Program-made: the position numbers and the translations under genes | Part shown: positions 2,041 to 31,575 of the stretch, in pieces | How the letters are laid out: the number at the start of each line of letters is the position of its first letter | How positions within the stretch are numbered: the first letter of the stretch is position 1 | Assembly (NCBI GenBank): GCA_964410585.1 | Contig: CAYPFW010000001.1 | Span: 68,781-132,780 of the forward strand | Length of the DNA: 64,000 nt | Source of the DNA: an uncultured archaeon | Lineage (GTDB): Archaea; Aenigmatarchaeota; Aenigmatarchaeia; QMZP01; JACQNV01 | Direction: 5' to 3' | Notes under the pieces: generated by a model | Databases searched by the model: none | Told to the model about the DNA's origin: nothing | The model's input: only the letters and a program-made list of their open reading frames with translations

Positions 2041-2616
2041 TTACATGTATCGATAAAGTATATACTTCTTTGCAACTCCAGGCAATTTGTTTTTGACAAA
2101 AACAAACTCAATGACTTCTTTTATATCCCAAACAGGCACAGGTTTCTTGGATTTTCCAAATCTTTTGTCTAAAATTAAAATTACTTCCTTTGTCATTTTC
2201 TCTGCAAAATTTCCATCTTTTATATGGGATTGGTGCAAGCTTTTTTGGATTGATTTGAAAATTTTCTCTGAGTTGAAATCTTCTGTTGTTCCGTCCCTTT
2301 TTTCAACTTTTTTAATTTTTGATTTTTTTGAATGGAGCCAAACAAACATGTATGTGTCACAAACCCTGATCATATTGTTTTCTTTGAAAACAGAGCAAAC
2401 AGATGATCTCACATCTTCTACAGAGACCAAATCTTTCTTCTTTTTCTCCAGAGCCTTCAAAACATCGTCTGCCAAAACTTCTGGCGGGCAAAGTTTGAAA
2501 TTCGCTTGATGGCACGCCTTAGCTATGCTTTTGGTTAGTTTTTTCTTCTCAAATTTCTCAATTGTTCCGTCTCTTTTTCTTATCTTTTTTATCATACTAA
2601 TCACGATGATAGCCAA
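2041..2616 (-). CDS. tandem ATP-cone domain protein
   Basis: Two repeats of the ATP-cone signature (IKKIRKRDGTIEKFEKKKLTKSI... and IKKVEKRDGTTEDFNSEKIFKSI...) with no attached catalytic domain. Confidence 0.65.
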   Translation of the reverse strand: MAIIVISMIKKIRKRDGTIEKFEKKKLTKSIAKACHQANFKLCPPEVLADDVLKALEKKKKDLVSVEDVRSSVCSVFKENNMIRVCDTYMFVWLHSKKSKIKKVEKRDGTTEDFNSEKIFKSIQKSLHQSHIKDGNFAEKMTKEVILILDKRFGKSKKPVPVWDIKEVIEFVFVKNKLPGVAKKYILYRYM

Positions 2617-3409
2617 CCAAATACTTCAGTGTAGCCATTATAATTATTACTAGAGCTATTCCTCCTATTAAATGTAGAAGCAAATATGAAGCAACTGTTG
2701 AAATTATCCACACACCTAAGCCAGCCAAGAATAGGCCAACGAGCAACCTCATTAATCCTCTATTCTCCTTTCTCCACTTCTCCAAGTTTTTCAAACCAAC
2801 ACCAGAGTACGCCATGTAGATTATAGCTAACAAAGGTGCAATGAAAACCAGGTTATACAAAAGCAAAAGCGGCATAGCAGTTAAATATGACATACCGCTC
2901 TGTGACATGTAACTAAGGACAGCCAAGTATGGAGCGCCTGTGCAAGGAAGTTCAATTAGAGTGACAATAACTCCAAACATGAACGCAGAGATCAGGCTTC
3001 TGTGCGTTCCGCGCGCCCTTGTTTCAACAGTTGATACAAACCTTTTTGGCATTGCCAAAGAAAATCCGTGACCATACCAAAAGAAATCTTTAATTTCCAA
3101 AAAACCTGCAAGGATAACAAAACTTCCAATTACCATGTAGAACATTTGGCTCACCAAGGCAACTTCTCTCACAGCATTGAAAACTCCTAGAAGTGTGATT
3201 CCACCAAGCAAATAAGTGACATAGACACCGAGTGTATATACAAACCCATTAACCAAGATCCCCTTTCTATTTTTCGATTTAACCAAAACACTCAAAAGAA
3301 GAATCAAAACACCAATCACACACGGATTTATAGAATCAATGAGGGCGCCTCCGAGAACAACAGGGATTGTAGCCTCTGGAGCCGCAACTATAACTTGTTC
3401 CAGTACCAT
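2597..3409 (-). CDS. DsbD/CcdA-superfamily-like polytopic membrane protein
   Basis: Multiple TM helices with membrane-embedded Cys motifs (INPCVIG and ELPCTGAPYLAVLSYM). Confidence 0.45.
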   Translation of the reverse strand: MVLEQVIVAAPEATIPVVLGGALIDSINPCVIGVLILLLSVLVKSKNRKGILVNGFVYTLGVYVTYLLGGITLLGVFNAVREVALVSQMFYMVIGSFVILAGFLEIKDFFWYGHGFSLAMPKRFVSTVETRARGTHRSLISAFMFGVIVTLIELPCTGAPYLAVLSYMSQSGMSYLTAMPLLLLYNLVFIAPLLAIIYMAYSGVGLKNLEKWRKENRGLMRLLVGLFLAGLGVWIISTVASYLLLHLIGGIALVIIIMATLKYLVGYHRD

Positions 3410-9303: not shown

Positions 9304-10494
9304 TTGGCTATGAAACTCTATGAGTTTGAAGGTAAAGAACTTTTTAAAAAGTCAGGGATAGCTGTGCCAAAATCTATACTTGTTGGAAGCCCTGAAAACT
9401 TACCAAAGAACCTTCTGGTTGTAAAATCCCAACTTCTGTCAGGAAAAAGAGGAAAGGCTGGTGTGATAAAAGTTTGCTCTTCGCAAGAGGACGTAGAAAA
9501 ATCTGTAAAAGAATTTTTGGGGAAAAAAGTCAACAATGAAGAAATTAAAAAAATTCTGCTCGAAGAAAAACTCGATGTCAAAAAAGAATATTACTTGTCA
9601 ATCACATATGACACGCGTGCGCGGTCACCTGTTTTCATTCTCTGTGCATCTGGTGGAATGGATATAGAAGAGTACAAAGAAAAAAATCCAGGAAAAGTTT
9701 TAATTGAGCCAGTTGATTTGACAGAGGAATTTGATCTGAAAAAAGCGCAGGCGCTTGCTAAAAAAGCGGGCTTCCCAGAAAAATCAGCTGAAATAATTTT
9801 GAACCTTTTCAATTGTTTCAAAAAATTCGATTGCAGGATTGCAGAAATAAACCCTTTAGTTGAAACATCGTCTGGTTTTTTCGCAGCTGACTCAAAAATT
9901 GTTTTAGATGATGATGCTTTGTTTAGGCACACTGATCTTGTTTTCCCACCAAGAACAGCAGGGGGAAGACAGCTCACAAAATTAGAAGAAGAAGCAAAAC
10001 AAGTTGATAAAGAAGATTATCGTGGTACAGCAGGCTCGTCTTTCATAGAATTGGATGGCGACATAGCAATTCTTGCTTCAGGTGGAGGGGCTTCAATAAC
10101 ATGTGTAGATGCTTTGATTGCATATGGCGGTCGCCCAGCAAACTATGTTGAATATTCTGGAAATCCGCCAAAAGCAAAGGTGAAAAGGCTCACAGAAGTC
10201 ACTTTGTCTAAACCAAATTTGAAAGGCTGTTGGATAGTTGGTGGCAGAGCCAATTTCACAGATATATATGAAACCCTGAAAGGTATTGTAGAGGCTTTGG
10301 AAGAACTAAATCCAAAATATCCTATAATTGTCAGAAGAGCAGGACCAAGAGACAAAGAAGCATTTGAAATGCTAAAAGAAAAAGCAAAAAAGCATGGATG
10401 GAATTTGCTTGCTTTCGGTGATGAAACACCAATGACAGAAACTGCGAAAATTTTGTTGGATGAAATTCGCAAAGTGAATGGGGGAAAGTACTAG
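9304..10494 (+). CDS. sucC: succinyl-CoA synthetase beta-subunit family (ATP-grasp); alternatively citryl-CoA synthetase large subunit
   Basis: MKLYEFEGKELFKKSGIAVP ATP-grasp N-terminus; ASGGGASITCVDALIAYGGRPANYVEYSG CoA-ligase motif. Confidence 0.85.
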   Translation: MAMKLYEFEGKELFKKSGIAVPKSILVGSPENLPKNLLVVKSQLLSGKRGKAGVIKVCSSQEDVEKSVKEFLGKKVNNEEIKKILLEEKLDVKKEYYLSITYDTRARSPVFILCASGGMDIEEYKEKNPGKVLIEPVDLTEEFDLKKAQALAKKAGFPEKSAEIILNLFNCFKKFDCRIAEINPLVETSSGFFAADSKIVLDDDALFRHTDLVFPPRTAGGRQLTKLEEEAKQVDKEDYRGTAGSSFIELDGDIAILASGGGASITCVDALIAYGGRPANYVEYSGNPPKAKVKRLTEVTLSKPNLKGCWIVGGRANFTDIYETLKGIVEALEELNPKYPIIVRRAGPRDKEAFEMLKEKAKKHGWNLLAFGDETPMTETAKILLDEIRKVNGGKY

Positions 10495-10495
10495 T

Positions 10496-11389
10496 ATGTC
10501 AATCCTAATCGACAAAAATACAAAAGTATTGGTTCAGGGAATCACAGGAAAAGAAGGTTCAAAATCAACAAAAGAAATGATAGAATACGGGACAAAAGTT
10601 GTTGCAGGTGTCACTCCAGGAAAAGGTGGCCAACAAGTTGAGGGGCTTCCTGTTTACAACACAGTAAAAGATGCTGTGCAAAAACATCCAGAAATAAATG
10701 CAACTGTTTTATATGTGCCACCTGCTGGTTTGAAAGCAGCGGCCATCGAGGCCATAGATGCTGGCATTCCTCTTTTGAACATAATTACAGAGCATGTACC
10801 TATCCAAGATTCAGCATACATCTATGCATATGCAAAAAAGAAAAAAGCAAGTATTGTTGGCCCGTCTTCTGTTGGAATAATTTCTCCTGGAAAATGTAGG
10901 CTTGGTTCAATTGGCGGAATAGATCCTTCAATTCAGTTTGTCCCAGGAAATATTGGAGTAATTTCAAAATCAGGTGGAATGTCTTCTGAAATTTCTTTGA
11001 TAATAAAAAAAGCAGGTTTGGGCCAATCTACTGTGGTTGGTATGGGTGGTGATGTTGTCGCAGGTTCAACATTCCACGAGTTCCTAGAACTTTTTGAAAA
11101 AGATTCAGAGACAAAAGGAGTTGTTGTTTTTGGCGAGCTTGGTGGAACATATGAAGAGCAGCTTGCAGAATTTATCAAAGCGAAAAAATTCACAAAACCT
11201 GTTGCTGCTTTCATTGGTGGTGAATTTGCAGTCAATTTGCCAGAAGGACAATCTTTAGGACATGCTGGTGCTTTGATAGAAGGAAAAACGGGCTTGCCTC
11301 AAAACAAGAAAAAGGCGCTCCAAGAAGCTGGTGTAAAAGTTGCAAAAGTTCCAGGCGAACTCGGGGAATTGATCAAAGGATTAATTTGA
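10496..11389 (+). CDS. sucD: succinyl-CoA synthetase alpha-subunit family; alternatively citryl-CoA synthetase small subunit
   Basis: [37 protein letters not shown], phosphohistidine loop [11 protein letters not shown]; start set to the ATG 18 nt into the ORF-track frame, abutting the sucC stop. Confidence 0.9.
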
Positions 11390-11422: not shown

Positions 11423-12031
11423 ATGCAGCTGAAAACTATTTTTGTGCTCATGCTTATTTCGATTGTTTTAATCTCTGGATGTACAGTGCCCCAAGATCAA
11501 CAAAAACTAAAAATTGAAAAAACAACAGACACTGATTTAACATCACAAGTGGAAAGTGATCAGCAGAAAACAGAAACCCCTTCTGAGCAAACTAAAACAG
11601 TTCCCTCTGACAAAGAAACAAAAAGCTCAGAAGATTTGTCAACAAGTGAGCCTCTAAAATTTTCAGGAAATGTTTTAGCTGGAACATCGTCTCCTTTTAT
11701 CGAATTCAATAGTCCAGACTTTCAGCTTGCTTTGGAATCAGACAAACTAATTATCCTTTCATTCTATGCAAATTGGTGTCCTATATGTAAAGCAGAAGAG
11801 CCTGAGCTTTTCGCAGGTTTTAATGAGTTAGAAACAGACAATGTTGTTGGCTTTAGGGTTAATTTCAATGACGATCAAACTGATTTTGAAGAACAGAAGC
11901 TAGCAGAGGATTATCAAGTTCCATACCAGCACACAAGAGTTTTTATAAAAAATAAAGAAATTGTTTTAAAAACCCCAGAGTCTTGGACAAAAGAGAGATT
12001 GTTGGAAGAAATAAACAAGTATTTAGAATAA
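11423..12031 (+). CDS. thioredoxin-fold lipoprotein (TlpA/ResA-like thiol-disulfide oxidoreductase)
   Basis: Signal peptide with LISGC lipobox; WCPIC active-site motif. Confidence 0.75.
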   Translation: MQLKTIFVLMLISIVLISGCTVPQDQQKLKIEKTTDTDLTSQVESDQQKTETPSEQTKTVPSDKETKSSEDLSTSEPLKFSGNVLAGTSSPFIEFNSPDFQLALESDKLIILSFYANWCPICKAEEPELFAGFNELETDNVVGFRVNFNDDQTDFEEQKLAEDYQVPYQHTRVFIKNKEIVLKTPESWTKERLLEEINKYLE

Positions 12032-12032
12032 T

Positions 12033-12752
12033 ATGAATAGGCAAACTGTAATTTTCCTGAACTCAGTTGCTTTTGTTCTAGGTTTTTCTTTTATTTTTTC
12101 TTTAGTTGGTGTTTTAGTGAACTCTATTCTTTCAAATGTTGCATACACAACTGTAAATCTGCTTCGATTGGTTGGTGGAACAGTGATCATACTTTTTGGG
12201 ATTTTTCTGATAGCTTCACTGAAATATAAAATCCCTTTCCTGCAATCAGAGCATAAGATAAAAATTAAAAAATTCAAAATAAGTTATATTTCTTCTTTTT
12301 TGTTTGGTGTTGCCTTTGCAGTTGGTTGGACTCCATGTGTCGGTGCTATCTTAGGTTCAATATACGCCCTAGCTGCTACCTCTCCTGGTTCTAGCTTCCT
12401 TCTTTTGTTCACATATTCATTGGGAATTGGTATACCGTTTTTGATTGCAGGCGCATTCACATCAAAAGTCTCAAAGTTTGTTGAAAAATCCCAAAAAGTT
12501 TTAAAGTATTTCAATATAATTGGTGGCCTGCTTTTGATTTTAATTGGACTCTTTGTTTTATTCAATTATTTAGGAATTGTGGCTGCATTTTTTGTTGGAG
12601 GGGAAGGTATTGTAGTTTCAGGGCAATTGAATTTTTTAATTGCGTTTTTAGCAGGCGTTGTAACTTTTATTTCTCCATGTATTCTTCCTCTGCTTCCTGC
12701 TTTCTTCTCCTATATGGCTGGAACAGCTGCAACCACTTTAAAAGAAAATTAG
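12033..12752 (+). CDS. CcdA/DsbD-family membrane thiol-disulfide transporter, apparently circularly permuted
   Basis: GWTPCVGAILGS near residue 100 and FISPCILPLLPAFFSYMAG at the extreme C-terminus, i.e. the two canonical CcdA Cys helices in reversed order. Confidence 0.7.
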   Translation: MNRQTVIFLNSVAFVLGFSFIFSLVGVLVNSILSNVAYTTVNLLRLVGGTVIILFGIFLIASLKYKIPFLQSEHKIKIKKFKISYISSFLFGVAFAVGWTPCVGAILGSIYALAATSPGSSFLLLFTYSLGIGIPFLIAGAFTSKVSKFVEKSQKVLKYFNIIGGLLLILIGLFVLFNYLGIVAAFFVGGEGIVVSGQLNFLIAFLAGVVTFISPCILPLLPAFFSYMAGTAATTLKEN

Positions 12753-12810: not shown

Positions 12811-13557
12811 ATGACAGACAAGAAATGGAAGACTAGGATTGCAGATTCGTCTGATGAAAGGACAGTTGTAAGAGGATACAATTTGATGGATTTGATTGGT
12901 CGCCTTTCATTTTCAGAAATGATTTTTTTAGAATTGAGAGGAAAACTTCCAAATGAAAAAGAGAGGAAAATGATGGACGCAATTCTTGTCTCAACTGTAG
13001 AGCATGGTATAGCGCCTCCATCTATCACAGCAGCTAGGACAGCCTTTTCTGGAGGAAATCCGATTTCAGCAGGCGTCGCAGCAGGTGTTTTGGCAATTGG
13101 TGAACATCATGGTGGAGCAATTGAACAAGCCGCAAAAGTTTACCAAGAGAACCTTTTGAAATCAGCAGATGAAGTTGTCAAAGATTATAGAACAAAGAGA
13201 ATGAGACTTCCTGGATATGGTCACAAAATTTACACAATTGATCCAAGAACAGTGAAAATGTTCCAAGTGGCTGAAGAGCTGGGAATTTTCGGCCACCACT
13301 GCAGGTTTGCACAAGAGGTCGAAAAATCTTTGGAAAAAGATTTGGGCAGAAAACTTTGTTTGAATGTTGACGGTGCCATTGCTGCAATTATGTCTGACAT
13401 GGGTTTTGATTGGAGATTGGGGAAAGGATTTTTCATCATTGGGAGAACAGTTGGGATAATTGCACACTTGCACGAAGAATGGACAACAGAACCTCCTTTC
13501 AGAAGATTGGACAGGTCAGAATATGACTATCTGGGCGAAGAAGGGAAGAAGTTGTAG
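12811..13557 (+). CDS. short citrate-synthase-family protein (citryl-CoA lyase-like, 248 aa)
   Basis: RGYNL, HGGAIE, LPGYGHKIYTIDPR and NVDGAIAAI motifs in citrate-synthase order but lacking the large central segment. Confidence 0.7.
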   Translation: MTDKKWKTRIADSSDERTVVRGYNLMDLIGRLSFSEMIFLELRGKLPNEKERKMMDAILVSTVEHGIAPPSITAARTAFSGGNPISAGVAAGVLAIGEHHGGAIEQAAKVYQENLLKSADEVVKDYRTKRMRLPGYGHKIYTIDPRTVKMFQVAEELGIFGHHCRFAQEVEKSLEKDLGRKLCLNVDGAIAAIMSDMGFDWRLGKGFFIIGRTVGIIAHLHEEWTTEPPFRRLDRSEYDYLGEEGKKL

Positions 13558-18272: not shown

Positions 18273-21200
18273 ATGAGAAAAATACTTTTCCTTCCAGTAT
18301 TTTTGCTAATTATCAGTTTTATTGCTCTTCCTAGCCAATCGCAGACAACTTTTAGGATAATGAACGTTAGCTTTTTGTTTGGTGATCCCTATACCGGCGA
18401 CCCATCAACAGGTGTTGATCCAACAAATTTTATAGGTGAGTGTGGTGGTGATTTACCCAAAGTCTGTACAGATCTTGGTTTTACTCTTCCTGAAGGTCCT
18501 GGAAAACAATCTGGTCTAGGTGTCGACAGGACACTTTGTACAAAGTCAGATGGCACTCAAAGTTATCAATACAGTTGCGATATATCTGGAATCAACTCAG
18601 ATAAATTCATCGATAAGATAGATCCGATTAGCAGGGTTCTCACATACAAAAGTGACCAACTCAAAGGTCCGATCCAATACATTCTCCATGATATTCTAAG
18701 CACAGGTTTCCCAAACAATTTAGATCCTTTTGTTTTCACAAAATCTATTCCTCCATTATATTCAACTGTTCAAGTGTTGGCAGAGCCAAATGGTTTAGTA
18801 GTGATAAAACCAGAAGAGGCAGTCAGAAAATACGACAATACAATTGCTTGGAATGATTCTTGCGTTGGCGATCTCAGCGAGCAATTTACAAATGATTTTT
18901 ACAGAATGGACAAGCAGACAGCAGCAAAAAATGGTTTTGAAATAGTTGAAAATTCCTGCACAGGTTTAGTTGGACAAAAACTAAAATATCATGTGCAAGT
19001 TCACCAACGCGGTTTTAACTACGAGAAGCAAAACGTAGAATGCAAACAAGGTGGCTCGCACTACAATCAGTTTTATGCATCAACTGGTCCAGAGCCAATT
19101 CCTTTTCCATACATTGCTATGTGTGAACCAGATTCGGGATACAGACCCTTGCTTTCAAGAGATTATGAACAAACAGGCCAATGGGGTTGGCCAACTTATT
19201 TCCCTCAAAGGCCTCGGCCAGGATCAACATACAGCGCCACAAACCAGTATTCCTTCTGCGAGGCCTTTGACATGGAGTATGAAGATGTCCATGATTCGGC
19301 CGGAAACTTAGTGAGCTACATATTTGGCGCAAGCGATTCTCCAAGATGTTTCCTTTGGCCAGGACCAGGAGACTCTGTAAGCATAAAACAACTTTCAAAA
19401 ATCCTTGTTTGGAATTTCCCATATATTTTCAATCCAGGTAGCTGCGGGGTTTTCGATTCTCTGAGACAGCGACAACAAGGTGGTGGTAAAGCAGGCTTCA
19501 ATGATCCTGCTTCATACAGAAGAGATGCAGCAGACATCATGTGCAAGAAGCCAATTTTGTTCAATAACCCAGATTATGAAGATGCTGAAAGGAGTGGTTC
19601 ATATATTTTCGAGCCAAGCAAAACAAAAACAGATCCCGGTGTCCAATTTTTGAACAATACAGTCAGGCCTTTTTTCGAACAAACAGATCGGTTGAACCAG
19701 GAATATTTTTCTGGCCCAAGCAAATATAGGAAAATTCAGTTCCATCTACCTGTTTTAACTTCAATTGAAGTCACAGATCTTCAAGGAAACATCTTAGCTC
19801 CAAAGCAACAACAGCTCCAAAACACAACAGTGACTTTGTATGGTGTTGAGGTTGGCCAAAAAATAAAAATAAAAGCTAAAGTAAAAGAATTAGACAGTCA
19901 CAATACATCTATCTTTGTTTTCCAGTCAACAAACTTTGGATGGGGAATGTTTGGACCAACGCAAGGCGGACAAGTCCCTATTTTTGGATGCGATTTCATT
20001 GACTCTTCAACATGTTTGCAAGGTGATGTGAATTTCAACAATGTAACCTTGACAGGCCCTCTCCACCAAAACCTAGGAGGCGTAACACAAGAAAAAGAAA
20101 TAGAATTTGTCTATGAAATTCCTTTAACATATCGTGCACCTCTTGTTGGAACAACATCTCTAAATCCAGGTGATCCATATCCTCTGTTTATTGGTTTTGC
20201 AGATGAGTTTAGCAATTTCGATTCTGTAAAAATCCTTTTCGAAATAGTTCCACCAATTTGTGCAAACCAAAAACACGATGCATCTTCAGGTGAAACAGAT
20301 TTGGACTGTGGTGGCCAAACTTGCCCTACTTGCTTAGATGGCCAAAGATGCAACCTAGATTCAGACTGCCAATCTGGCTGGTGCTACTCAGGATCAAATC
20401 TTCCGCCAAAACCACAACCAACATACGGCGACGGCATTTGCCGCACACCAACATGTTCTGATGGAATTCAGAATCAGGGTGAAACAGCTGTAGATTGTGG
20501 CGGTACAAACTGTGCACCTTGTGGTGGTTGTCAAGAAAATTGGATAACCTCGCCTTGGTCTGCATGCAAAGGCGGACAGCAAACACGAATTGTCAGAGAT
20601 ACAAATAGCTGCAATAACCCAACACCTGTGAACCCGCGTCCAGCAACACAAAGGTCTTGTGTTAACTTAGCTGCATGTGTGCCAACACCAAACCAGTGCG
20701 GTGGTTCAAATGGTTGTCAAATCCTTCCTTATTTGAACGGAGTATCTTGTGGATCAAACCAGGCAGGTGTCTGTTTTGCTGGAAGCTGCTATTTGCCAAC
20801 AACTAAAAAACAACCGCCTGTGGGCCAGTGTTTGCAAACAGACTGGTCACCATGCGAAAAACACAGTATCAATAATAAAGTAGGTTTCTACCAAATCAGA
20901 AATGTAGTTAAAGGAAATCTCAATGTTGCATGCACCCAGCTTCCACCAGATCAAAGGCCAGGCGCTGTAAGATCATGTTCGCCTCAGGCAGGTCCTGGTC
21001 CAAGAGATTTGTGTCAACAGTCTTTGATAGCCTCAGGTTTTGACACACGTTTATCAACTGATTTCACATCTCTAGCAAACTTAAACAGTGTTGAAGGATT
21101 CAAAATAGGGAACCAATTCGGTCAAATTGAGTTTTTAGGAAAATCTGACTTGTCTTCAATAGATTGTTCAAAACTAAATAATGTATTCAAAATAGAAAGA

Positions 21201-21578
21201 AACAAAGTTTTCGTTGATACAAAAACCTATCCAACATTTAACCAACAGGCTGTAGTTAGCTTGTTCACAAAAGACATCAAAGACCCAATTGTAAAAACAT
21301 GGGACAACCAGTGCATACAAGTCCAGGTTATACGATGGAATCCAGACACAGGTCTTCTAACTTTCAAGGCGCCGAAGTTTAGTGGTTATCAAGCAGTTGA
21401 AAAAGCAACAAGCGGTTGCACACCGCAAACGCCGCTAGCTTTATTACTGATGCTGATCTTAATACCAATAGGTGCAGTTGGTTTTTTGTTGTTTTACATG
21501 TACTACAGAAACAAAAAACTGCTGGGGCATGAGTTCCTATGGGAGAAGTACGTACAAAGCAAAGGAGACGCTAAATGA
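18273..21578 (+). CDS. large Cys-rich cell-surface protein (1101 aa) with signal peptide and C-terminal TM anchor
   Basis: N-terminal hydrophobic leader; repeated DCGG-x2-C-x2-C modules (DLDCGGQTCPTC, VDCGGTNCAPCGG); C-terminal LALLLMLILIPIGAVGFLLFYMYY followed by basic tail. Confidence 0.8.
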   Translation: MRKILFLPVFLLIISFIALPSQSQTTFRIMNVSFLFGDPYTGDPSTGVDPTNFIGECGGDLPKVCTDLGFTLPEGPGKQSGLGVDRTLCTKSDGTQSYQYSCDISGINSDKFIDKIDPISRVLTYKSDQLKGPIQYILHDILSTGFPNNLDPFVFTKSIPPLYSTVQVLAEPNGLVVIKPEEAVRKYDNTIAWNDSCVGDLSEQFTNDFYRMDKQTAAKNGFEIVENSCTGLVGQKLKYHVQVHQRGFNYEKQNVECKQGGSHYNQFYASTGPEPIPFPYIAMCEPDSGYRPLLSRDYEQTGQWGWPTYFPQRPRPGSTYSATNQYSFCEAFDMEYEDVHDSAGNLVSYIFGASDSPRCFLWPGPGDSVSIKQLSKILVWNFPYIFNPGSCGVFDSLRQRQQGGGKAGFNDPASYRRDAADIMCKKPILFNNPDYEDAERSGSYIFEPSKTKTDPGVQFLNNTVRPFFEQTDRLNQEYFSGPSKYRKIQFHLPVLTSIEVTDLQGNILAPKQQQLQNTTVTLYGVEVGQKIKIKAKVKELDSHNTSIFVFQSTNFGWGMFGPTQGGQVPIFGCDFIDSSTCLQGDVNFNNVTLTGPLHQNLGGVTQEKEIEFVYEIPLTYRAPLVGTTSLNPGDPYPLFIGFADEFSNFDSVKILFEIVPPICANQKHDASSGETDLDCGGQTCPTCLDGQRCNLDSDCQSGWCYSGSNLPPKPQPTYGDGICRTPTCSDGIQNQGETAVDCGGTNCAPCGGCQENWITSPWSACKGGQQTRIVRDTNSCNNPTPVNPRPATQRSCVNLAACVPTPNQCGGSNGCQILPYLNGVSCGSNQAGVCFAGSCYLPTTKKQPPVGQCLQTDWSPCEKHSINNKVGFYQIRNVVKGNLNVACTQLPPDQRPGAVRSCSPQAGPGPRDLCQQSLIASGFDTRLSTDFTSLANLNSVEGFKIGNQFGQIEFLGKSDLSSIDCSKLNNVFKIERNKVFVDTKTYPTFNQQAVVSLFTKDIKDPIVKTWDNQCIQVQVIRWNPDTGLLTFKAPKFSGYQAVEKATSGCTPQTPLALLLMLILIPIGAVGFLLFYMYYRNKKLLGHEFLWEKYVQSKGDAK

Positions 21579-24095: not shown

Positions 24096-24632
24096 ATGAT
24101 ATCAAAATCAGCCAAACTTGTTTTTGTTCTTCTATTAGTTTCAGTTGTTTTAATTTCTGGCTGCACAGAACAGTCTGTGGCAAATGGCTCAAGTCCATCT
24201 GATTCAGTCAATTCAAATCAGCTAACAGAATGCCCTCAAGGACAGGTAAAAACAGATTCAGGCTGTATGCCTGAAAACAAAGAAGAAACGCCTAATACAA
24301 TTCCAGATGAATCTTCAAAACCAGCAAATAACGAGCCTACCGAGCAATCACAAACTATCAAAGAATTTTCAATGACAGCCAAGCAATGGTCTTTTGACCC
24401 TGAAACAATTACAGTCAAGAAAGGAGATCATGTCAAACTAACAATAAAAAGCATAGATGTAACACACGGATTTGCTATCCCTGATTTTGGAGTGAGCGAA
24501 AACTTGGAGCCGAATAAAGAAATAGTTGTAGAATTTGATGCAGATAAGACAGGCACATTCACATTTTTCTGTTCTGTGTTCTGTGGTTCTGGTCATGCAT
24601 CGATGAAAGGCACACTTGTTGTTGAAGAATAG
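24096..24632 (+). CDS. CuA-type cupredoxin lipoprotein (cytochrome oxidase subunit II-like domain)
   Basis: Start set to the internal ATG (ORF-track frame +210) to avoid overlap with mre11; lipobox LISGC; DVTHGFAIPDFG and FFCSVFCGSGHASM (H...C-x3-C-x3-H-x2-M) CuA ligand pattern. Confidence 0.7.
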   Translation: MISKSAKLVFVLLLVSVVLISGCTEQSVANGSSPSDSVNSNQLTECPQGQVKTDSGCMPENKEETPNTIPDESSKPANNEPTEQSQTIKEFSMTAKQWSFDPETITVKKGDHVKLTIKSIDVTHGFAIPDFGVSENLEPNKEIVVEFDADKTGTFTFFCSVFCGSGHASMKGTLVVEE

Positions 24633-24745
24633 TTCAAATGCTAAACTGTTATTTCTGCATACAAAACTCTTTTAAACTACTTATGTATATAATATACATT
24701 CAAATTTCAATATCCAGTATAGAAATTGTAGTTTAATCTAAAAAT

Positions 24746-25456
24746 ATGAGCGACGAAAAACCAAACTCTGAATCTGGGGAGCAGAAAGCTCAGTCATCTG
24801 AAGATGAAAAGCTGACAAAGCACGAGCTCAGAGAATTGAGAAGGAAAGAGTCTAAGGAAGAAAGAGAAAAGCAGAATTCTGAGTCGCAAAAATTCTCAAT
24901 TGGTAAATACAGCAAATATCTAAAATATGTTGCAGTGTTTATTGTTGTTTTTGCCATAGTTTATGTTTGGTCTACTTCTTCTCCACAAGGACCAATGCCT
25001 TCAATAGGTCCTGTTGGATCAACACATATACATGCTGATTTAGGCCTGTTTTTAGATGGAAAAGAAATCACACCACTTCCAGAAAAATATTTTGTCAGAA
25101 TTAGCGAAGTTCACATGGAAGGGGGTCCTGGAGTAGGTACAGTAATGCACATGCACTCAACTGGTGTGCCTTTGAAAATGTTTTTCAATAGTTTAGGAAT
25201 GAGTTTTGATTCAAAGTGTTTCCAATTTGAGGGCCAAAGATACTGTTCAGATGAAACAAAGAACCTAAAAATGCTTGTTAAACATGAGGGTGGCCAGTGG
25301 GAACAAAACACAGATTTCGAGAGCTATGTTTTCAAAGACTTAGACAAAATTTTGATCACATATGGAAATGAAACACCAGAACAAATAGCCGAACAACAGA
25401 AACAAGTCACAGATGCTTCAAGGCTAAACTCAGAAAGAAAAATGACGGGATTTTAG
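24746..25456 (+). CDS. membrane-anchored protein with His-rich motifs (possible metal binding)
   Basis: Acidic/Ser-rich N-terminus, single TM, THIHADL and HMEGG...VMHMH motifs. Confidence 0.5.
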   Translation: MSDEKPNSESGEQKAQSSEDEKLTKHELRELRRKESKEEREKQNSESQKFSIGKYSKYLKYVAVFIVVFAIVYVWSTSSPQGPMPSIGPVGSTHIHADLGLFLDGKEITPLPEKYFVRISEVHMEGGPGVGTVMHMHSTGVPLKMFFNSLGMSFDSKCFQFEGQRYCSDETKNLKMLVKHEGGQWEQNTDFESYVFKDLDKILITYGNETPEQIAEQQKQVTDASRLNSERKMTGF

Positions 25457-25555
25457 TTCTTGTTTTTCGCGTGTAGTGTATTAGGTCACTTGAAAAGTAT
25501 ATAACTTATTCTGTGCTAATTCTAAGTATAATCTGTATTTTAGAGTGAGGCATAA

Positions 25556-26332
25556 ATGAAAGATCCATTTAAAAAATATCCAGTGAAAACATACGTCCTT
25601 ATAGCAGTTCTAATAATGTCAATCCCGGGGATCCTACAGTTTGGATACCAAAACACAGTTCCCCAAATGGTTTTGGCAGTCCTTGTGGCTGCTGGTTTAG
25701 ATCTCCTAGTTAACAAACTGAAAAAAGGCCCGACATATTTTGTCCCAACTTCCGGAATAATTTCAGGTTTAATTGTCTCAACAATACTTGCTCCTGGCTC
25801 TGTTTGGTATGTCCCTGTGGCTGGTGCAGCAATTGCAATCTTGTCCAAACATGTTTTCAAAGTTAAGCTAAACAATTTCTGGAACCATGTTTTTAACCCA
25901 GCAAACTTCGCGCTGCTTGTATTGGTTGGTTTTGGAATAGGAAAAGATGCTTGGTGGATTGGTACAAATTCTATTCTTGTTGCTATCCTCGGTTTGTTCA
26001 TCTTATGGAGGCTTAGGAAAATTTCAATAGTTGTCCCATTCTTTTTGTTTTTCCTCCTTTCAACTTCAATTACATCAGTCTTCATCCAAAGGCAACTGAC
26101 AACTGACATACTTTTAGCAGAAGCAACAGGAGGCTCCACACTATTCTTCATGTTCATCATGCTCCAAGAACCAATGACAACACCAAGGAAAAAATATGGT
26201 AGGATAGTTTTTGGTTCAGTTGTTGGTGTTTTGGTTCCACTTCTTTTGGCTTTCCCTGCTACTGGTTTTATCAGCATATATTTTGCCTTGGCTATAGGAA
26301 ACATTCTCGTGCCAATTTTAAATAGAGTATGA
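25556..26332 (+). CDS. NqrB/RnfD-family-like integral membrane protein (258 aa)
   Basis: Polytopic; SKHVFKVKLNNFWNHVFNPANFALLVL resembles the RnfD/NqrB conserved FNPA segment. Confidence 0.55.
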   Translation: MKDPFKKYPVKTYVLIAVLIMSIPGILQFGYQNTVPQMVLAVLVAAGLDLLVNKLKKGPTYFVPTSGIISGLIVSTILAPGSVWYVPVAGAAIAILSKHVFKVKLNNFWNHVFNPANFALLVLVGFGIGKDAWWIGTNSILVAILGLFILWRLRKISIVVPFFLFFLLSTSITSVFIQRQLTTDILLAEATGGSTLFFMFIMLQEPMTTPRKKYGRIVFGSVVGVLVPLLLAFPATGFISIYFALAIGNILVPILNRV

Positions 26333-26473
26333 ACCAAACAACTTTAATCGGTCTGATAGCCCTTATCGGCTTTTTAGTTATCCTAGGTTTAGTCATCTAC
26401 AAAACAGACCAAAAAATGAAGGAGTATTTGTTGCAGCATCCCGAGAAGGCAGGTTCAAATATAAATACTTCAC

Positions 26474-29400
26474 TTGATAAATAATGTTATGCTTCAATGT
26501 TTTCTGCAGAAGAAAATAGTTTTTTCATTCTTATTTACAATTATTGTAGTTTCTTCAGTTCTTATTGTTAGAGCTGATGCACAGGGAACGTATACATATT
26601 ATGGCATAACTTTCCAAGAACCGTTGGGCTGGGAAAAGACATTTCCTTTTATAGGAACATTTATTGGTGGGGAAATTTCGCATTCTCAAGAGGTTATGTA
26701 TGAGAAGGATGGTGCTATTATATTTGTTACAAATGGTGGAAATGTACTGCTTTTAGATAAAAGCCCTAGAACATTATCTATAGGCAAAATTGAAGGTTTA
26801 AAGTTTGTATATAGTGATCCAGAGGAAAAAATTGAAGCGGAAGGTTTTGTATTTGATTATAAAGAAAAAGAATATTTTATAACAATTATAAGTAGTACAG
26901 GTATAAAAGAAGCCGATAGAACTGTTTGGAAATCTCTAATAGAAAGCATTAATTTTGGGGATGTTGGTTTATCGCTGCTTTTAGCAGAAGATAGTATAGA
27001 AACCAAAAATGCTATACAATTTTCTCCAGAGATCGACACAGACACAAATAATGAATTTATTCAAAATCTTCAAAAAGACATAAAAACTGTGACAATTGGC
27101 GGTGCCAAAGGAAAATCAAATTTTGATGCTAATTTAGAAAGAACACTTAATCTTGAGAAACTAAATGCCCGTGTATTTGAGAACGGTAAACCCATAGAAT
27201 TTGATGAAAAGGGTGAGCGCAAGGATGTACCTGGTTTGGAAAGAAGCAAAAATGCCAAAGGCCTGGCTCTTGATGTGGTAAAATCAATATATAATAGCCC
27301 TAATTCGGCCCTTAGTTATATTTCCTGGGCCTTTACTAGTTCTGATATTTACAAGATTGGTGAAAAAAATGAAAGAGTTACAAAATTCCTTCAAGAATTA
27401 GACGCAATTGAAGCAGATACACAATTAGAAACAATAAAACAGGTTCATAATCTTGTGGGTAAATATGTTCCTGGATATCTCCCACAGGAAGATAAAGAAG
27501 ATATAGCTACAAATAGTATAGGCGCCGCTATTAAGGATGGAAAAGGAATTTGTCGTGAACAAGCAGCCTTGCTCAAATGGGCATTGGATAAAAAATTAGG
27601 AGGAAAAGCTAATTATAATGCAGAGGTAGTAGGTCAGGACACTACTCATGTTTGGGTTCGTGTAACATTTGATGGTGGACAATTTGATTTAGATACAACC
27701 TGGTTCAAAACTTTTTTCCCACTTGTCCCAAGAGACACTGATAATTGGATGAAATTGTTTTTTTATACAGATGGTTATCTATTTCCATCACGTAACAATG
27801 AAGCAAAATCAATAGATTCAGTCACAGTCAAAGAAGGAGAAATTGAAGAGCAAACAGTCGATCAAGAGACAACAATAGACCAACAAGAAACAAAAAGCGA
27901 CTTTGTACGTACACAATCTCCAATTGACTCATTTTTCAAATTTATTAGTGGTTTATTCACCAGTTTGCTTGGTGGATCACCAACTACACAAACCCAAACA
28001 TCTGAGCCAACAATGAAAGAACCTGGTGATAGTACAGGAATATTTTCTTTCCTTACAGATTGGTTTAAATCAAGACCTCCACAAACAGCTCCTCATGATG
28101 AACAAGGTGATAAGAAAGCGGATTTGGAGAATAAAGATGATAAGAAATCATCAGATAAAGTGATTAAATCTTATTTCACATCAACTTGCCCTAATCCGAC
28201 AACAGATCAAGTAGCCAATGAAGCAGACTACGCAGAAGGTTTCTCTACACCTAAAATACTTGATTTACTTAGAATTTCTGATGATGCCAAAATAGCTTCT
28301 GACTCTACACTTGAAATAGATACATCTTCTTCAACAACTACATTTAGCCTTGCTTCTGGAAGTAGTCTTGTGAATATAAAGAAAATAGATGTGACTGTAG
28401 ATGGAATTAATGTAGATTTGGCTGATATAAGACTTACAGACAAAAGCGGAAAGCTTTTAGGTTCATCAAAACTAGATTCTAGTGGTAAAACAACAATTTC
28501 AACTGACTTCACAATTGGCTCTGATTCTACTAGTAGCAAAATTGATGTGATAGTGGACACAGTTGAGGACTCTACAAGTACGCCTACTGTAACTCTGACA
28601 GGGAAAACATCCACAGATTCCACAATAAAGGGTACGGCAGTCGAAAGCCTTGTACAATACAAAATTAAAGCCGATAATGAAGATGTTTCAGTAAAAGATA
28701 TAACTGTATCCACAGATTCTTCTACTACTCTTGACATTTCCAATATAATACTTATAGATAAGGATGGAAATAGTATAGGATCCTCGGTACCAGATTCTTC
28801 TGATCAAACACCAATTTCAACAACCCTCAACATACCATCTGGTACAGAAGAATTAATAAAAGTAAAGGTTGTTTACAAACAATCAGAATCATCTTCGGCA
28901 CCAGTAGAACCAATGCAAGTCCAGGGTACGTGGAATATTTATAATCTTCCTAATTGGGATGTTATATCAACCACGACACAAAATAGTCAACAGTCAGCTT
29001 CCCTAAGTTCATCCGCAGAAGGCAATCACTTCCACATAAGCTTTGGAAATAACAAATACCCACCGGGCTACTTTGTATTCTATAAGGATGGTGGTGAGAT
29101 TCTAGTTTACGATGCAAATGATCCAACATTGTTTTGCAAACAACAAACTAGAAGCGGGGATAATTGTGGTGATACATCAACTGATACAAATGGTGTCTCG
29201 GGGGATGGATGGTTATATTGGGCTTCTAAAGACGGAAAGCAGGTTAGTAATTCATTAAAGGTTGGAACCCCTGGAAAAAGCCCTCCTTCTCTGATTACAA
29301 TTTCAGCCCAAATAGGCCTGATAACTGCAAAACAAATTTTCAAATTTAAACAATCTCAATCTGGCAGCGAATATACATATCAACTAGAAAGTTTATCTAA

Positions 29401-30895
29401 TTTACCTCTTGTGACTCAGGCACCAAACCCATCAACCGGCTTATCAACAATGTATCTTAATCCTGTAAGAGCAGTATCTCAAGGCGAACAAAGTCCAACT
29501 CTCGCTCCGCTAAGTCTTGGTATATTGAATCTTGATGGAAGCCAGTTTTTCACAGCAACATATGATGATTCATCTAAATCTTTTGTTTTAACAAACAAAC
29601 TAACAGGCCAAACAACAAGCTCTACTAGTCTTAGTGCTTCTGGAAATTGGAGAGTTGGAACAATACAAGTAGGTGGTGCCAGCTATTCTGTAATGGTTTA
29701 TCCATCATCGAGTGCATTCACAATTTTGACACAAAATCCCCAAAACAATATTAATTTGGCTGATGGTTATGTATTGTCTTTTGCCAACACATTTGTAACA
29801 GATCCAGCTACACCAATCACAGCAGAATTGAAAAATAGTGGTGGTACAGTTGTCGCAACAGTGAAATTCTTCATGGGATCAACACCAAGAGTAACAATTA
29901 CACCAACTCCTGGATATTCTTCATCAAATCCATATACTGGGGCAGTTAGTGTATCTTCTGTAACATTGGGTACACCCCAATCAACAACTACAACAACTGG
30001 TCCAACTACATCTGCTGGATTTTCTTTATCCATTGATACTGGGGAACAGCCAACAGAAGCAGAAGAAAATTTAGTTGACAATCTTGCAGATCTTTCCAAA
30101 GCAGCAGAAATGGGCAGGCTTTTGAAAATTTCCTCAAAATCTGATTTAGCTGAAAAATTGAGAACAGTTTGTGGAGATCCTCCTATTGGTGGTTTAACAG
30201 CAGCTATAGTTGGTTCAAATGAAAACAAATGGGCAGGCTGGGCTGTATATGATCCAGAAAAAATGTCTCAGTTTATATTGAACTCTAAAAAAGAATCTTC
30301 TGGTTTGGTTGGTAACTTGATTTCAAAAACACCAATTTCAGGATTTTTGACTGGGATGCAGATAGATTGGTCAACAAATCAAAAACCAAAAGACGATGTT
30401 GGATATTATAGTTGCGGGCATCCTAACAAAGCCACTCAAGACTCAACAAAGCCATGCACTATGGTGCGCAGAGGAGCGTTTTTATCTAATGCATACTCTG
30501 GTGATTCTTGCTCACCCCCTGAAAATGGTGTATGTGTAGGGAACGGTGAACCTATTGAAGCAGACGAAAGACCTCAAGGAAAATTTAAATACTATCAAAG
30601 CTGCAGTTGTGTACCAAAAGATCAGGCTCAGTGCCCTCTAGTACCTTTTATTGATTTAGAAGAAGGTAATTTGAATATAAATAGGGATTCGGATAACGAT
30701 GGCTTAAAGGATTTTGAAGAACGTATTTTCAATACTAACCCAAATGATCCAACTGATCCTATAGAAAACCCAAACAGAAATTTGGCCTTTATAATTTTGG
30801 TTGACGACGAAAACTTCGATGAAGTAAAAGAGTGTTTGATGGCATCCCTAGCACCTGGCGGAACAGTAGGTAGTGGTGGAACTGCCGTTGGTTAA
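26474..30895 (+). CDS. giant Ser/Thr-rich surface protein (1473 aa) with transglutaminase-like core and conserved C-terminal tail
   Basis: Signal peptide; GKGICREQAALLKW ... DTTHVWVRV ... DLDTTW gives a Cys-His-Asp arrangement; long S/T-rich repeats; DSDNDGLKD acidic motif; ends APGGTVGSGGTAVG. Confidence 0.8.
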   Translation: MINNVMLQCFLQKKIVFSFLFTIIVVSSVLIVRADAQGTYTYYGITFQEPLGWEKTFPFIGTFIGGEISHSQEVMYEKDGAIIFVTNGGNVLLLDKSPRTLSIGKIEGLKFVYSDPEEKIEAEGFVFDYKEKEYFITIISSTGIKEADRTVWKSLIESINFGDVGLSLLLAEDSIETKNAIQFSPEIDTDTNNEFIQNLQKDIKTVTIGGAKGKSNFDANLERTLNLEKLNARVFENGKPIEFDEKGERKDVPGLERSKNAKGLALDVVKSIYNSPNSALSYISWAFTSSDIYKIGEKNERVTKFLQELDAIEADTQLETIKQVHNLVGKYVPGYLPQEDKEDIATNSIGAAIKDGKGICREQAALLKWALDKKLGGKANYNAEVVGQDTTHVWVRVTFDGGQFDLDTTWFKTFFPLVPRDTDNWMKLFFYTDGYLFPSRNNEAKSIDSVTVKEGEIEEQTVDQETTIDQQETKSDFVRTQSPIDSFFKFISGLFTSLLGGSPTTQTQTSEPTMKEPGDSTGIFSFLTDWFKSRPPQTAPHDEQGDKKADLENKDDKKSSDKVIKSYFTSTCPNPTTDQVANEADYAEGFSTPKILDLLRISDDAKIASDSTLEIDTSSSTTTFSLASGSSLVNIKKIDVTVDGINVDLADIRLTDKSGKLLGSSKLDSSGKTTISTDFTIGSDSTSSKIDVIVDTVEDSTSTPTVTLTGKTSTDSTIKGTAVESLVQYKIKADNEDVSVKDITVSTDSSTTLDISNIILIDKDGNSIGSSVPDSSDQTPISTTLNIPSGTEELIKVKVVYKQSESSSAPVEPMQVQGTWNIYNLPNWDVISTTTQNSQQSASLSSSAEGNHFHISFGNNKYPPGYFVFYKDGGEILVYDANDPTLFCKQQTRSGDNCGDTSTDTNGVSGDGWLYWASKDGKQVSNSLKVGTPGKSPPSLITISAQIGLITAKQIFKFKQSQSGSEYTYQLESLSNLPLVTQAPNPSTGLSTMYLNPVRAVSQGEQSPTLAPLSLGILNLDGSQFFTATYDDSSKSFVLTNKLTGQTTSSTSLSASGNWRVGTIQVGGASYSVMVYPSSSAFTILTQNPQNNINLADGYVLSFANTFVTDPATPITAELKNSGGTVVATVKFFMGSTPRVTITPTPGYSSSNPYTGAVSVSSVTLGTPQSTTTTTGPTTSAGFSLSIDTGEQPTEAEENLVDNLADLSKAAEMGRLLKISSKSDLAEKLRTVCGDPPIGGLTAAIVGSNENKWAGWAVYDPEKMSQFILNSKKESSGLVGNLISKTPISGFLTGMQIDWSTNQKPKDDVGYYSCGHPNKATQDSTKPCTMVRRGAFLSNAYSGDSCSPPENGVCVGNGEPIEADERPQGKFKYYQSCSCVPKDQAQCPLVPFIDLEEGNLNINRDSDNDGLKDFEERIFNTNPNDPTDPIENPNRNLAFIILVDDENFDEVKECLMASLAPGGTVGSGGTAVG

Positions 30896-30924: not shown

Positions 30925-31575
30925 ATGATCACCAAAAAATATCTCCCAATAATAATTCTTGTCATGGGAATAGTTTTAGTCTCAGGTTGCTCTCAACCCC
31001 CAACTAATCAAACAACAGATCAACCACAAAACACAGCTGAACCTCTAACACAACCTTCTGATGAATCGAATCCAGTAGATGAGAATCCTCCTGAAATAAC
31101 TCAACCAGAAATCAAAGAAGAACCAAAGGTTGAGCCGAAAAAAGTTGTTCCAAAGGGACATTTTGATTTTGTCAATGGAGATACATGGGAGCCAACTGCT
31201 TTTGCTTTTGGAGTCAAACTTCATCTAATAGTTGCAGGCGATGGGAAAAATTTCAATGTCCCTAAATTTTTGCCTATAAATGTCAGAATACTTCTTAGAA
31301 ATGCGATTGTCTGGTCTTATTTAATTCAAGGATCTGCTGAACAAACGTGCAGGGATGAAACAGGATGCAGCCCAGAAAACGGTGAAACTTTTGAGGCAAC
31401 AGATGATTGGAAAGTAGGTTCTTTGAAATTTATAGCAACAGACGAAGAGGGTAATCTTTTAGCATACGAAGAATATCAAGACGGAGAGTTTGTAACCAAT
31501 GGAGAAGAGGGTGTTGAGGTTGCTTCAACTGCACCGGGTGGAACTATTGGGGGAAGTGGAACAGGAGTAGGGTAG
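30925..31575 (+). CDS. Pro-rich lipoprotein sharing the C-terminal domain of the upstream giant protein
   Basis: Lipobox LVSGC; CSPENG motif; ends APGGTIGGSGTGVG. Confidence 0.65.
   Translation: MITKKYLPIIILVMGIVLVSGCSQPPTNQTTDQPQNTAEPLTQPSDESNPVDENPPEITQPEIKEEPKVEPKKVVPKGHFDFVNGDTWEPTAFAFGVKLHLIVAGDGKNFNVPKFLPINVRILLRNAIVWSYLIQGSAEQTCRDETGCSPENGETFEATDDWKVGSLKFIATDEEGNLLAYEEYQDGEFVTNGEEGVEVASTAPGGTIGGSGTGVG

Follow-up and report, generated by a model that had tools for sequence, protein, structure and literature searches.

CuA centres are known to serve in electron transfer and are not known for transport or storage, and their redox potentials are high. CuA-only 'nosZ-like' genes were found in 21 of 33 DPANN genomes from oxygen-deficient zones (ODZ), without CuZ and without other components of an oxidase or respiratory chain; N2O reduction was raised as their role and a five-histidine cupredoxin-like protein stands beside some of them, but complementation with the DPANN genes in a Pseudomonas nosZ mutant was negative, with no N2O consumption (Zhang et al., mBio 2024, PMC10936187). 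Among membrane proteins, RnfD has been described as the Na+-translocating subunit of Rnf, with Asn124 and Asp248 assigned to Na+ passage and riboflavin binding and a five-helix linker that covers the covalently bound flavin mononucleotide (FMN) in the Rnf structure (PMC9588780), and NqrB/RnfD-like domains without the flavinylation Thr have been proposed as one-way electron conduits directed outward (Meheust et al. 2021, PMC8238504; Huang et al. 2024, PMC11334425). Here we describe a locus in a 64,000-nt stretch of DNA of Aenigmarchaeota (DPANN) origin, hereafter the window, in which all positions are numbered: three neighbouring genes encode a CuA-type cupredoxin (gene 1), a membrane protein of an undescribed family with five conserved histidines (gene 2) and a stand-alone RnfD/NqrB-fold protein without the FMN-bearing linker (gene 3), and their association across genomes proved recurrent yet flexible and loose. 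The CuA-only protein type is already known, as are RnfD-like domains without a flavin site in another architecture; in the literature searched we found neither the gene-2 family nor the trio described, no account of stand-alone RnfD-like genes paired with cupredoxins and other secreted metalloproteins, and nothing linking cupredoxins with stand-alone RnfD-like proteins.

Properties of the three proteins

In the product of gene 1 a signal peptide with a lipobox-like ISGC is joined through a low-complexity linker to the cupredoxin domain at the C-terminus; the protein matched the Pfam families Cupredoxin_1 (PF13473; E = 4.9e-16, 59.1 bits, cutoff 27) and COX2 (PF00116; E = 2e-9, 37.8 bits, cutoff 22). 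End-to-end alignment with the soluble CuA domain of the Thermus ba3 oxidase (6ptt, 2cua) and the CuA domain of P. stutzeri NosZ (3sbp) placed H124, C159, C163, H167 and M170 at the CuA ligand positions. This complete ligand set is strictly conserved in the family, for which an indexed search returned 400 homologues, mostly of 130-180 aa and mostly from Woesearchaeota, Nanoarchaeota and candidate phyla radiation (CPR) bacteria, with 60-74% identity across the cupredoxin domain. Family members are fused only to DUF7282 and DUF6799, which are uninformative; a relationship of gene 1 to the streptococcal copper chaperone CupA is detectable (E = 7e-5). The best NCBIfam matches were NosZ models, over their last ~90-145 positions only and at 57-71 bits against cutoffs of 625-700, and CoxB (TIGR02866) scored 55.7 bits against a cutoff of 147.7; with both scores far under their cutoffs, gene 1 is therefore neither a NosZ nor an oxidase subunit II. 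The first identity was rejected for a protein of 178 aa in which only the C-terminal CuA part is matched, without the seven-histidine CuZ beta-propeller, and the second also for its single signal and lipobox, which replace the two N-terminal transmembrane (TM) helices of cytochrome c oxidase subunit II. Judged by its sequence, gene 1 is an orphan 'Cox2/NosZ-like' CuA cupredoxin with a putative binuclear copper site. The DPANN CuA-only proteins from the ODZ resemble it in being short and secreted, in carrying the C-x3-C-x3-H site only and in lying between Cox2 and NosZ in similarity; unlike gene 1, their genes are marine and neighbour an acyl carrier protein or the cupredoxin-like five-histidine protein, and neither an RnfD-like gene nor the gene-2 family is mentioned in that study (PMC10936187). 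A literature search for clade III NosZ returned nothing relevant.

Gene 3 matched PF03116 (NQR2_RnfD_RnfE; E = 4.4e-21, 76 bits, cutoff 27.7), and its AlphaFold model (predicted local distance difference test, pLDDT, 89.7) aligned in Foldseek to RnfD chains with a TM-score of 0.74 and to NqrB with ~0.66; Amt/Rh channels matched more distantly, and the fold is shared with Amt/Rh and urea channels alike. It shares with RnfD and NqrB the Pfam family, the ten-helix fold and the FNPA and (D/E)PxT(S/T)P motifs. Its H111-V-F-N-P-A116 segment contains the FNPA motif, which, like EPMTTP, aligns with the RnfD counterpart (N-P-A and D-x-x-T-S-P, respectively) and is invariant or near-invariant in 36 stand-alone homologues, and N114 and E205 are the counterparts of RnfD Asn124 and Asp248. 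Across the 36 homologues the family keeps K98, H111, F113-N-P115, M202, an acidic residue at 205, P206 and T208. What sets gene 3 apart from RnfD and NqrB is the region of the five-helix linker, where ~44-73 RnfD residues are without a counterpart: residues 134-137 of gene 3 bridge residues 143-217 of A. vinelandii RnfD in the alignment, and the profile built from the 36 homologues passes over residues 145-189 of C. tetanomorphum RnfD. The FMN-bearing Thr matches none of the conserved columns in the 36 homologues, the long terminal (cytoplasmic) arms of RnfD and NqrB are absent, and the NCBIfam RnfD equivalogs scored 48-51 bits against cutoffs of 207-415. The absence of the linker and the conservation within the family therefore place gene 3 in a stand-alone, linker-less subfamily, and the notion of a leftover Rnf subunit was rejected. 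An earlier note on this DNA had called the protein RnfD/NqrB-like, which is right for fold and family and needs correction for the missing FMN linker and the separate subfamily.

Members of this subfamily carry the names RnfD, NqrB and 'enediyne biosynthesis protein E5' in their sources. The last, a JGI name given to many stand-alone homologues of 270-300 aa, is annotation only; no enediyne genes lie near gene 3, and a literature search with the E5 name and its synonyms identified no functional study. No COX1, RnfA/B/C/E/G or Nqr partner was found among the 45 window open reading frames (ORFs) scanned with Pfam, which comprise most ORFs of at least 110 aa plus the small gene 4, and the same ORFs contained no FMN-binding partner, ApbE or PF00175 domain. 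The Nqr/Rnf-like two-subunit systems have, like gene 3, an NqrB/RnfD-type membrane domain with the same core motifs and without the flavinylated Thr. Gene 3 differs from them in having no fused C-terminal NAD-binding domain (PF00175), the protein ending at 258 aa after its last helix, and no FMN-binding partner or ApbE nearby, and its outside neighbours are copper proteins or histidine-rich proteins where those systems have a flavinylated subunit.

Gene 2 combines a charged cytoplasmic N-terminus (a Lys/Glu-rich helix), one predicted TM helix (residues 59-77) and an outer domain, with histidines at H94-I-H96, H123 and H135-M-H137. No significant Pfam or NCBIfam family and no close solved fold was found for it. 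The outer domain is modelled as beta-grasp-like with a pLDDT above 90, and its histidine pairs occupy alternating residues at or flanking three predicted strands; they would therefore lie on one shared face, from which we infer that the five histidines form a metal site. In 83 family members, H94, H96, H123, H135 and H137 are each present in 80-82, the exceptions being alignment gaps only, E, D or H stands at position 125, C158 and C167 are kept in 77-78, and D200, K201, Y206 and G207 are near-invariant. The resulting family motif, HxH ... Hx(E/D/H) ... HxH plus two Cys after a single TM helix, is present in gene 2 and in 125 of 148 top representatives. An exhaustive profile search returned 2668 cluster representatives at E<=1e-3 (944 of them at E<=1e-10), and a genome scan gave 78 distinct loci in Aenigmarchaeota, Woesearchaeota, Iainarchaeota, Micrarchaeota, Nanoarchaeia, ammonia-oxidising Thaumarchaeota and CPR bacteria. 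A cytoplasmic N-terminal C2H2 zinc finger occurs in 28 of the 83 locus members and is replaced by the Lys/Glu-rich helix in gene 2 and in its relatives L006, L175 and P0054; some proteins combine the gene-2 domain with DsbA, a Redoxin/AhpC domain or a beta-propeller in one chain.

The three genes are co-oriented (Table 1), and their boundaries were identical in independent calls on three other assemblies of the same locus. The ORFs lie exactly where the earlier note had put them, and its descriptions of a lipoprotein with a CuA-type ligand set, a membrane-anchored protein with HIH and HMH motifs, a 258-aa RnfD/NqrB-like protein with H-x-FNPA, and a window with neither oxidase subunit I nor a complete Rnf/Nqr complex all agree with the results above, including those of the profile searches for COX2 cupredoxin and NQR2_RnfD_RnfE, which supported both assignments. 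'Compact cluster' was apt for the co-orientation alone: the intergenic gaps measure 113 bp (genes 1-2) and 99 bp (genes 2-3), and the archaeal intergenic regions, read by eye, contain a TATA-like box (TTTATATA) 23 bp upstream of the gene-1 start, similar boxes ~50 bp upstream of genes 2 and 3, and a T-rich stretch after the stop codons of genes 1 and 2. From these sequences the three genes probably have separate promoters, and an operon is therefore not demonstrated. Tight coupling is confined to gene 3, the small gene 4, whose start overlaps the gene-3 stop by 4 bp (ATGA), and the next gene, for a 1468-aa surface protein; it is not kept in L006, which has a gene-4 homologue that does not adjoin its RnfD-like gene. 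Gene 4 was also called in other assemblies and had no Pfam or NCBIfam match.

The 1468-aa secreted protein (26489-30895, +) starts 4 bp after gene 4 and contains a transglutaminase-like C...H...D stretch, recognised by eye. It and the next protein, of 216 aa (30925-31575, +), end in similar Gly-rich tails, APGGT(V/I)G(S/G)(G/S)GT(A/G)VG, possibly a sorting or anchoring signal that the two have in common at the C-terminus.

Table 1. Features of the trio and the adjoining gene 4 (positions in the window).
Feature	Position	Strand	Basis or detail
Gene 1, CuA-type cupredoxin, secreted, lipobox-bearing, 178 aa	24096..24632	+	Pfam; alignment with Thermus CuA and NosZ
Gene 1 signal peptide and lipobox-like ISGC (Cys23)	24096..24164	+	Sequence; hydrophobic residues 6-24
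CuA ligand set of gene 1	24465..24605	+	H124 codon 24465-24467; C159-x3-C163-x3-H167-x2-M170 loop 24570-24605
Gene 2, single-pass membrane protein of undescribed family, 236 aa	24746..25456	+	
Gene 2 predicted metal site and Cys pair	25025..25246	+	H94, H96, H123, E125, H135, H137 (25025-25156); C158 (25217-25219); C167 (25244-25246)
Gene 3, stand-alone RnfD/NqrB-fold membrane protein without FMN-bearing linker, 258 aa	25556..26332	+	PF03116; Foldseek
Gene 3 core motifs F113-N-P-A116 (25892-25903) and E205-P-M-T-T-P210 (26168-26185)	25892..26185	+	Conservation in 36 stand-alone homologues
Gene 4, single-TM protein, 51 aa; possible small partner, membership uncertain	26329..26484	+	ATGA overlap

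Neighbourhoods of the relatives in other genomes

Parts of the gene order in the window are kept in relatives of 62-75% identity: in locus L175 a gene-1 relative (62%) is followed after 29 bp by a gene-2 relative (order 1-2), and in L006 a gene-2 relative is followed by a gene-3 relative (75%; order 2-3). In four Woesearchaeota loci, a CuA-type cupredoxin with the same CS(V/Y)FCG(S/P)GH motif is encoded ~1 kb or less from a gene-2 relative; the genes there form co-oriented clusters together with those of a distant gene-2 paralogue and a DsbD-type protein, and a VIT1 transporter is encoded upstream. In L047 and L055 the distance between an RnfD-like gene and a gene-2 relative is 1-3.5 kb; in the latter, an Aenigmarchaeote, a His-rich cupredoxin directly precedes the RnfD-like gene, and this pair lies 3.5 kb from a DsbA/gene-2-like pair.

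We also examined 80 metagenome loci of stand-alone RnfD-like genes. Cupredoxins lie no more than two genes away in 12 of them; a CuA-type cupredoxin directly adjoins the RnfD-like gene in four, two of these being fused to a YHS-like metal module, and a His-rich, Cys-free cupredoxin lies within two genes in eight. A 116-aa secreted His/Cys protein is encoded directly downstream of the RnfD-like gene, often overlapping it, in 20. Small 4Fe-4S ferredoxins are encoded upstream, within two genes, in 10 loci, whose RnfD-like proteins are the closest to gene 3, and 2-oxoacid:ferredoxin oxidoreductase (OFOR) and P-type ATPase genes were found in 7-8 and 8 loci, respectively; others have flavoprotein, DoxX or thioredoxin-reductase-like genes. 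These counts therefore put putative cytoplasmic electron donors on one side of the RnfD-like gene and secreted metalloproteins on the other. The same scan recovered, as relatives of gene 3, RnfD-like proteins of 505-522 aa, which correspond to the published Nqr/Rnf-like systems. ApbE-like and FMN-binding proteins are encoded beside four of them; the one examined, from L147, has both neighbours and carries a fused FNR-type reductase domain.

Three of the protein families met in these scans deserve description. The CuA cupredoxins beside RnfD-like genes in L130 (3-587) and L131 (4375-4893) carry an N-terminal CPxxG...CCPMC module, YHS/TRASH-like by eye, which from its sequence looks like a second metal site. 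The Cys-free cupredoxins share the motifs HWP...HPTH...YHDHL (L103, L116, L148, L150, L153, L154, L162, L166, L024, L052, L055, L087), also occur within ~4 kb of gene-2 relatives, and may be the 'five-histidine cupredoxin-like protein' reported beside DPANN nosZ-like genes (PMC10936187). The secreted family of ~116 aa (L115, L117, L118, L122, L125 and 15 more loci; also L008, 8732-9076) has a mature N-terminus HPPSDI and conserved HYIKKVD and GYCSISGKL, and often lies in oxidative-stress islands with OFOR, WrbA-like, rubredoxin and rubrerythrin genes. As to a suspected superoxide-reductase-like identity, the desulfoferrodoxin iron domain was its sole family match, and a weak one (16 bits, cutoff 62; E = 0.009); no PDB sequence matched it.

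The usual company of the gene-2 family is of another kind. In raw hits, which include duplicate assemblies and the loci from which the queries came, a membrane-anchored protein with two CxxC thioredoxin-like domains was counted at 36 loci, a polytopic protein of 432 aa whose predicted membrane region contains CxxC pairs at 27, a 63-aa protein at 25, DsbA at 21 and a YHS-bearing copper-type P-type ATPase at 18; DsbD-type genes are also among the usual neighbours. A conserved Aenigmarchaeota cluster (L004, 4990-11869; same layout in L012, L021, L010, L019, L020, L023 and L025) encodes, in this order, DsbA, a gene-2 relative, the 432-aa protein (CxxC pairs and a CCGNPTGHPDCSH motif), the 63-aa protein, the two-CxxC thioredoxin-like protein, a distant gene-2 paralogue (168 aa) and the YHS-bearing P-type ATPase. 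The 432-aa, 63-aa and 168-aa partners had no Pfam or NCBIfam match, and the cluster has the look of an as yet undescribed system for disulfides and copper. Known bacterial systems of copper stress and disulfide formation include the Scs, Dsb and CopA clusters, and fusions of DsbA partners such as VKOR-thioredoxin. The gene-2 family resembles these in sitting with DsbA, DsbD-type, thioredoxin-like and copper-ATPase genes and in its occasional DsbA fusions; its domain, however, is unrelated in sequence and fold to DsbB, VKOR and the Scs proteins, and gene 2 of the window adjoins a cupredoxin and an RnfD-like gene instead of DsbA.

CuA cupredoxins have further settings of their own. In CPR bacteria one lies directly upstream of an Fe/Mn superoxide dismutase (SOD) gene (L168 and L170, 5001-6086), and in a marine DPANN locus (L172, 5001-7245) one lies upstream of genes for a secreted protein with a CopC-like N-terminus (HAHL...), DoxX and DsbA. 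The SOD and DoxX/DsbA neighbourhoods are hints of an oxidative-stress role for the cupredoxin family. A 162-aa protein beside the marine cupredoxin was considered as a gene-2 relative and rejected.

Functional readings of the trio

The data show the domain identities, the conservation of ligands, the loss of the FMN site and the recurrence of the neighbourhoods. Copper and redox themes outside the membrane, together with the lack of a visible respiratory chain, lead us to favour a surface-redox reading, in which the trio would be a loosely linked set for extracytoplasmic electron transfer and copper redox chemistry, not for respiration; we hold it tentatively, at somewhat less than an even chance. 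Gene 3 would be the membrane link, with its ten-helix core and its conserved pair of Asn and acidic residue, the covalent-FMN linker having been lost, and its route might run via a non-covalent flavin, as proposed for Nqr/Rnf-like systems. Outside, gene 1 would act as a lipid-anchored CuA one-electron carrier in place of a flavinylated NqrC/RnfG-like subunit. Gene 2 would bind a metal, probably copper, through its five histidines and acidic residue, would likely contain a disulfide and, whether as acceptor, as donor or as a partner in metal handling, would connect the route with the network of DsbA, thioredoxin and copper ATPases. Because CuA potentials are high, flow outward from cytoplasmic donors to oxygen, reactive oxygen, Cu(II) or disulfides is easier to picture, and the purpose could be disulfide chemistry, removal of oxygen or reactive oxygen, or copper reduction at the surface, with no energy-conserving respiration. 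A bolder form, which we consider distinctly improbable, would be a heme- and quinone-free surface redox system in DPANN archaea and CPR bacteria (organisms without quinones and hemes), made of a linker-less RnfD-like conduit, a CuA lipoprotein relay and a gene-2-type metalloenzyme that recycles DsbA or reduces oxygen or reactive oxygen.

A number of points weigh against the surface-redox reading. The cofactor site of gene 3 is not demonstrated, and given its Amt/Rh- and urea-channel-like fold the protein could be a plain channel; no cytoplasmic electron donor (ferredoxin, FNR-like domain or flavoprotein) adjoins it in the window. The metal of gene 2, if any, is indicated by none of its fold or sequence matches. 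None of the 80 metagenome RnfD-like loci contains a gene-2 relative, and the link between genes 2 and 3 is therefore limited to a few Aenigmarchaeota, while CuA cupredoxin relatives also stand in unrelated contexts, beside SOD in CPR bacteria and with DoxX and DsbA in marine DPANN. The intergenic gaps with their TATA-like boxes and T-rich stretches make separate transcription of the genes possible. Gene context is the basis of the whole functional reading, all evidence being comparative. For the minimal redox or copper-handling module suggested by the earlier note the outcome is accordingly mixed: the recurrent orders 1-2 and 2-3 and the cupredoxins near RnfD-like genes (12/80) and near Woesearchaeota gene-2 relatives speak for it, whereas the strongest links of gene 2 are with DsbA, thioredoxin-like, DsbD and copper-ATPase genes.

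Two alternatives take up these points. According to the first, which we judge unlikely and nonetheless worth serious weight, the locus would handle copper without electron transfer: the products of genes 1 and 2 would bind, buffer or chaperone copper outside, and gene 3 would be a cation channel or transporter that moves copper or another ion, in the manner of membrane CopD with its periplasmic partner CopC. Copper-type P-type ATPases near gene-2 relatives (18 loci, raw hits) and the ATPases near RnfD-like genes (8/80) fit such a role, as do the YHS-like CxxG...CCPMC modules fused to CuA cupredoxins that adjoin RnfD-like genes, the CopC-like secreted protein after the marine DPANN cupredoxin, the kinship of gene 1 with the chaperone CupA, and a fold that gene 3 shares with Amt/Rh and urea transporters and with a Na+-translocating Rnf subunit. 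Against it, the CuA ligand set, an electron-transfer site, is kept fully and strictly; the pairings of RnfD-like genes with ferredoxin and 2-oxoacid oxidoreductase would be needless for a metal transporter; and for neither gene 2 nor gene 3 was similarity in sequence or fold to CopC, CopD, PCuAC or Sco found.

The second alternative, doubtful and likewise to be taken seriously, is that there is no module: three independently transcribed envelope genes, with no more in common than the general theme of surface metalloproteins in a small anaerobe, would have stayed together by descent in one Aenigmarchaeota subclade, physically and functionally uncoupled. A TATA-like box for each gene and the T-rich stretches after genes 1 and 2 agree with this, and so do the differing commonest partners (DsbA, thioredoxin and CopA for gene 2; ferredoxin, OFOR and the 116-aa protein for RnfD-like genes; SOD and DoxX for the cupredoxin), the 0/80 count of gene-2 relatives and the finding of the full trio in this Aenigmarchaeota clade only. 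Mere co-descent is harder to reconcile with cupredoxins near RnfD-like genes in 12 of 80 loci, including lineages in which the RnfD-like identity is 28-38%, with the pairs found outside the clade (CuA cupredoxin with a gene-2 relative in Woesearchaeota, RnfD-like gene with a gene-2 relative in L047 and L055) and with a gene order kept at 62-75% identity.

The remaining two alternatives are disfavoured by the criteria of family membership. That the locus holds parts of classical respiratory complexes, gene 1 as subunit II of a heme-copper oxidase and gene 3 as the D subunit of Rnf, with the other subunits elsewhere in the genome, is very improbable: some homologues are indeed named 'cytochrome c oxidase subunit 2' and 'RnfD' by their sources, but gene 1 has a signal and lipobox where subunit II has two TM helices, both proteins score far below the CoxB and RnfD cutoffs given above, gene 3 is without the FMN linker and the cytoplasmic arms, no partner subunit is present among the scanned window ORFs, and in the ODZ survey CuA-only proteins were likewise unaccompanied by further parts of an oxidase or chain (PMC10936187). 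A split minimal nitrous-oxide reductase, in which the CuA protein feeds a His-rich catalytic copper site in gene 2, is scarcely probable at all, for although NosZ models, through their C-terminal CuA domains, give gene 1 its best NCBIfam matches, the five histidines of gene 2 are invariant, and N2O reduction was raised for DPANN CuA-only genes with a five-histidine protein beside some, CuZ needs seven histidines on a beta-propeller and gene 2 is small, beta-grasp-like and without NosZ similarity, the five-histidine protein of that study is cupredoxin-like and not a gene-2 relative, the DPANN genes gave no N2O consumption in the Pseudomonas nosZ mutant (PMC10936187), and the scanned window ORFs include no nosDFYL-type maturation genes.

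Other features of the window and significance

The window is archaeal: close homologues with a source name are from Aenigmarchaeota, and S4e, an Rpb7-like protein and RtcB are also encoded in it. It is AT-rich (GC ~0.36), with an unremarkable base composition at the trio. Upstream of the trio, the stretch that separates ATP-citrate-lyase-like genes (9304-11389) from a citrate-synthase-like gene (12811-13557) encodes a membrane-anchored thioredoxin and a CcdA/DsbD-type protein (11423-12752, +); further upstream lie another DsbD/SfLAP-type gene (2597-3409, -) and a gene for a YtkA-like protein (925-2022). A 1101-aa Cys-rich secreted protein with a C-terminal TM helix (18273-21578, +) gave a weak match to the Nup98-type autopeptidase S59 (E = 1.2e-6). 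An 835-aa protein (53665-56172, +), whose gene adjoins an archaeal ribosomal-protein cluster, has as its first ~300 residues a full bacterial RpoD-type sigma-70 factor (Pfam sigma regions 1.2, 2, 3 and 4; NCBIfam RpoD, 3.6e-73, and anti-phage MzaA sigma, 1e-64), followed by a further ~530 C-terminal residues without an assignment; a sigma factor of bacterial type is an oddity in an archaeon.

Electron-transport chains are usually said to be absent from DPANN archaea and CPR bacteria, yet these organisms widely keep a strictly conserved CuA protein. The locus and its relatives offer two candidate partners for it: a stand-alone RnfD-like protein, encoded elsewhere between ferredoxin or 2-oxoacid oxidoreductase genes and those of secreted metalloproteins, and a large undescribed five-histidine family, tied to DsbA, of ~2,700 cluster representatives. 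Without a real link between them, the locus would amount to nothing more than neighbouring envelope genes of an ordinary kind; if the link is real, these proteins would provide testable components for the movement of electrons to the cell surface and for the management of disulfides, oxygen stress and copper without quinones.

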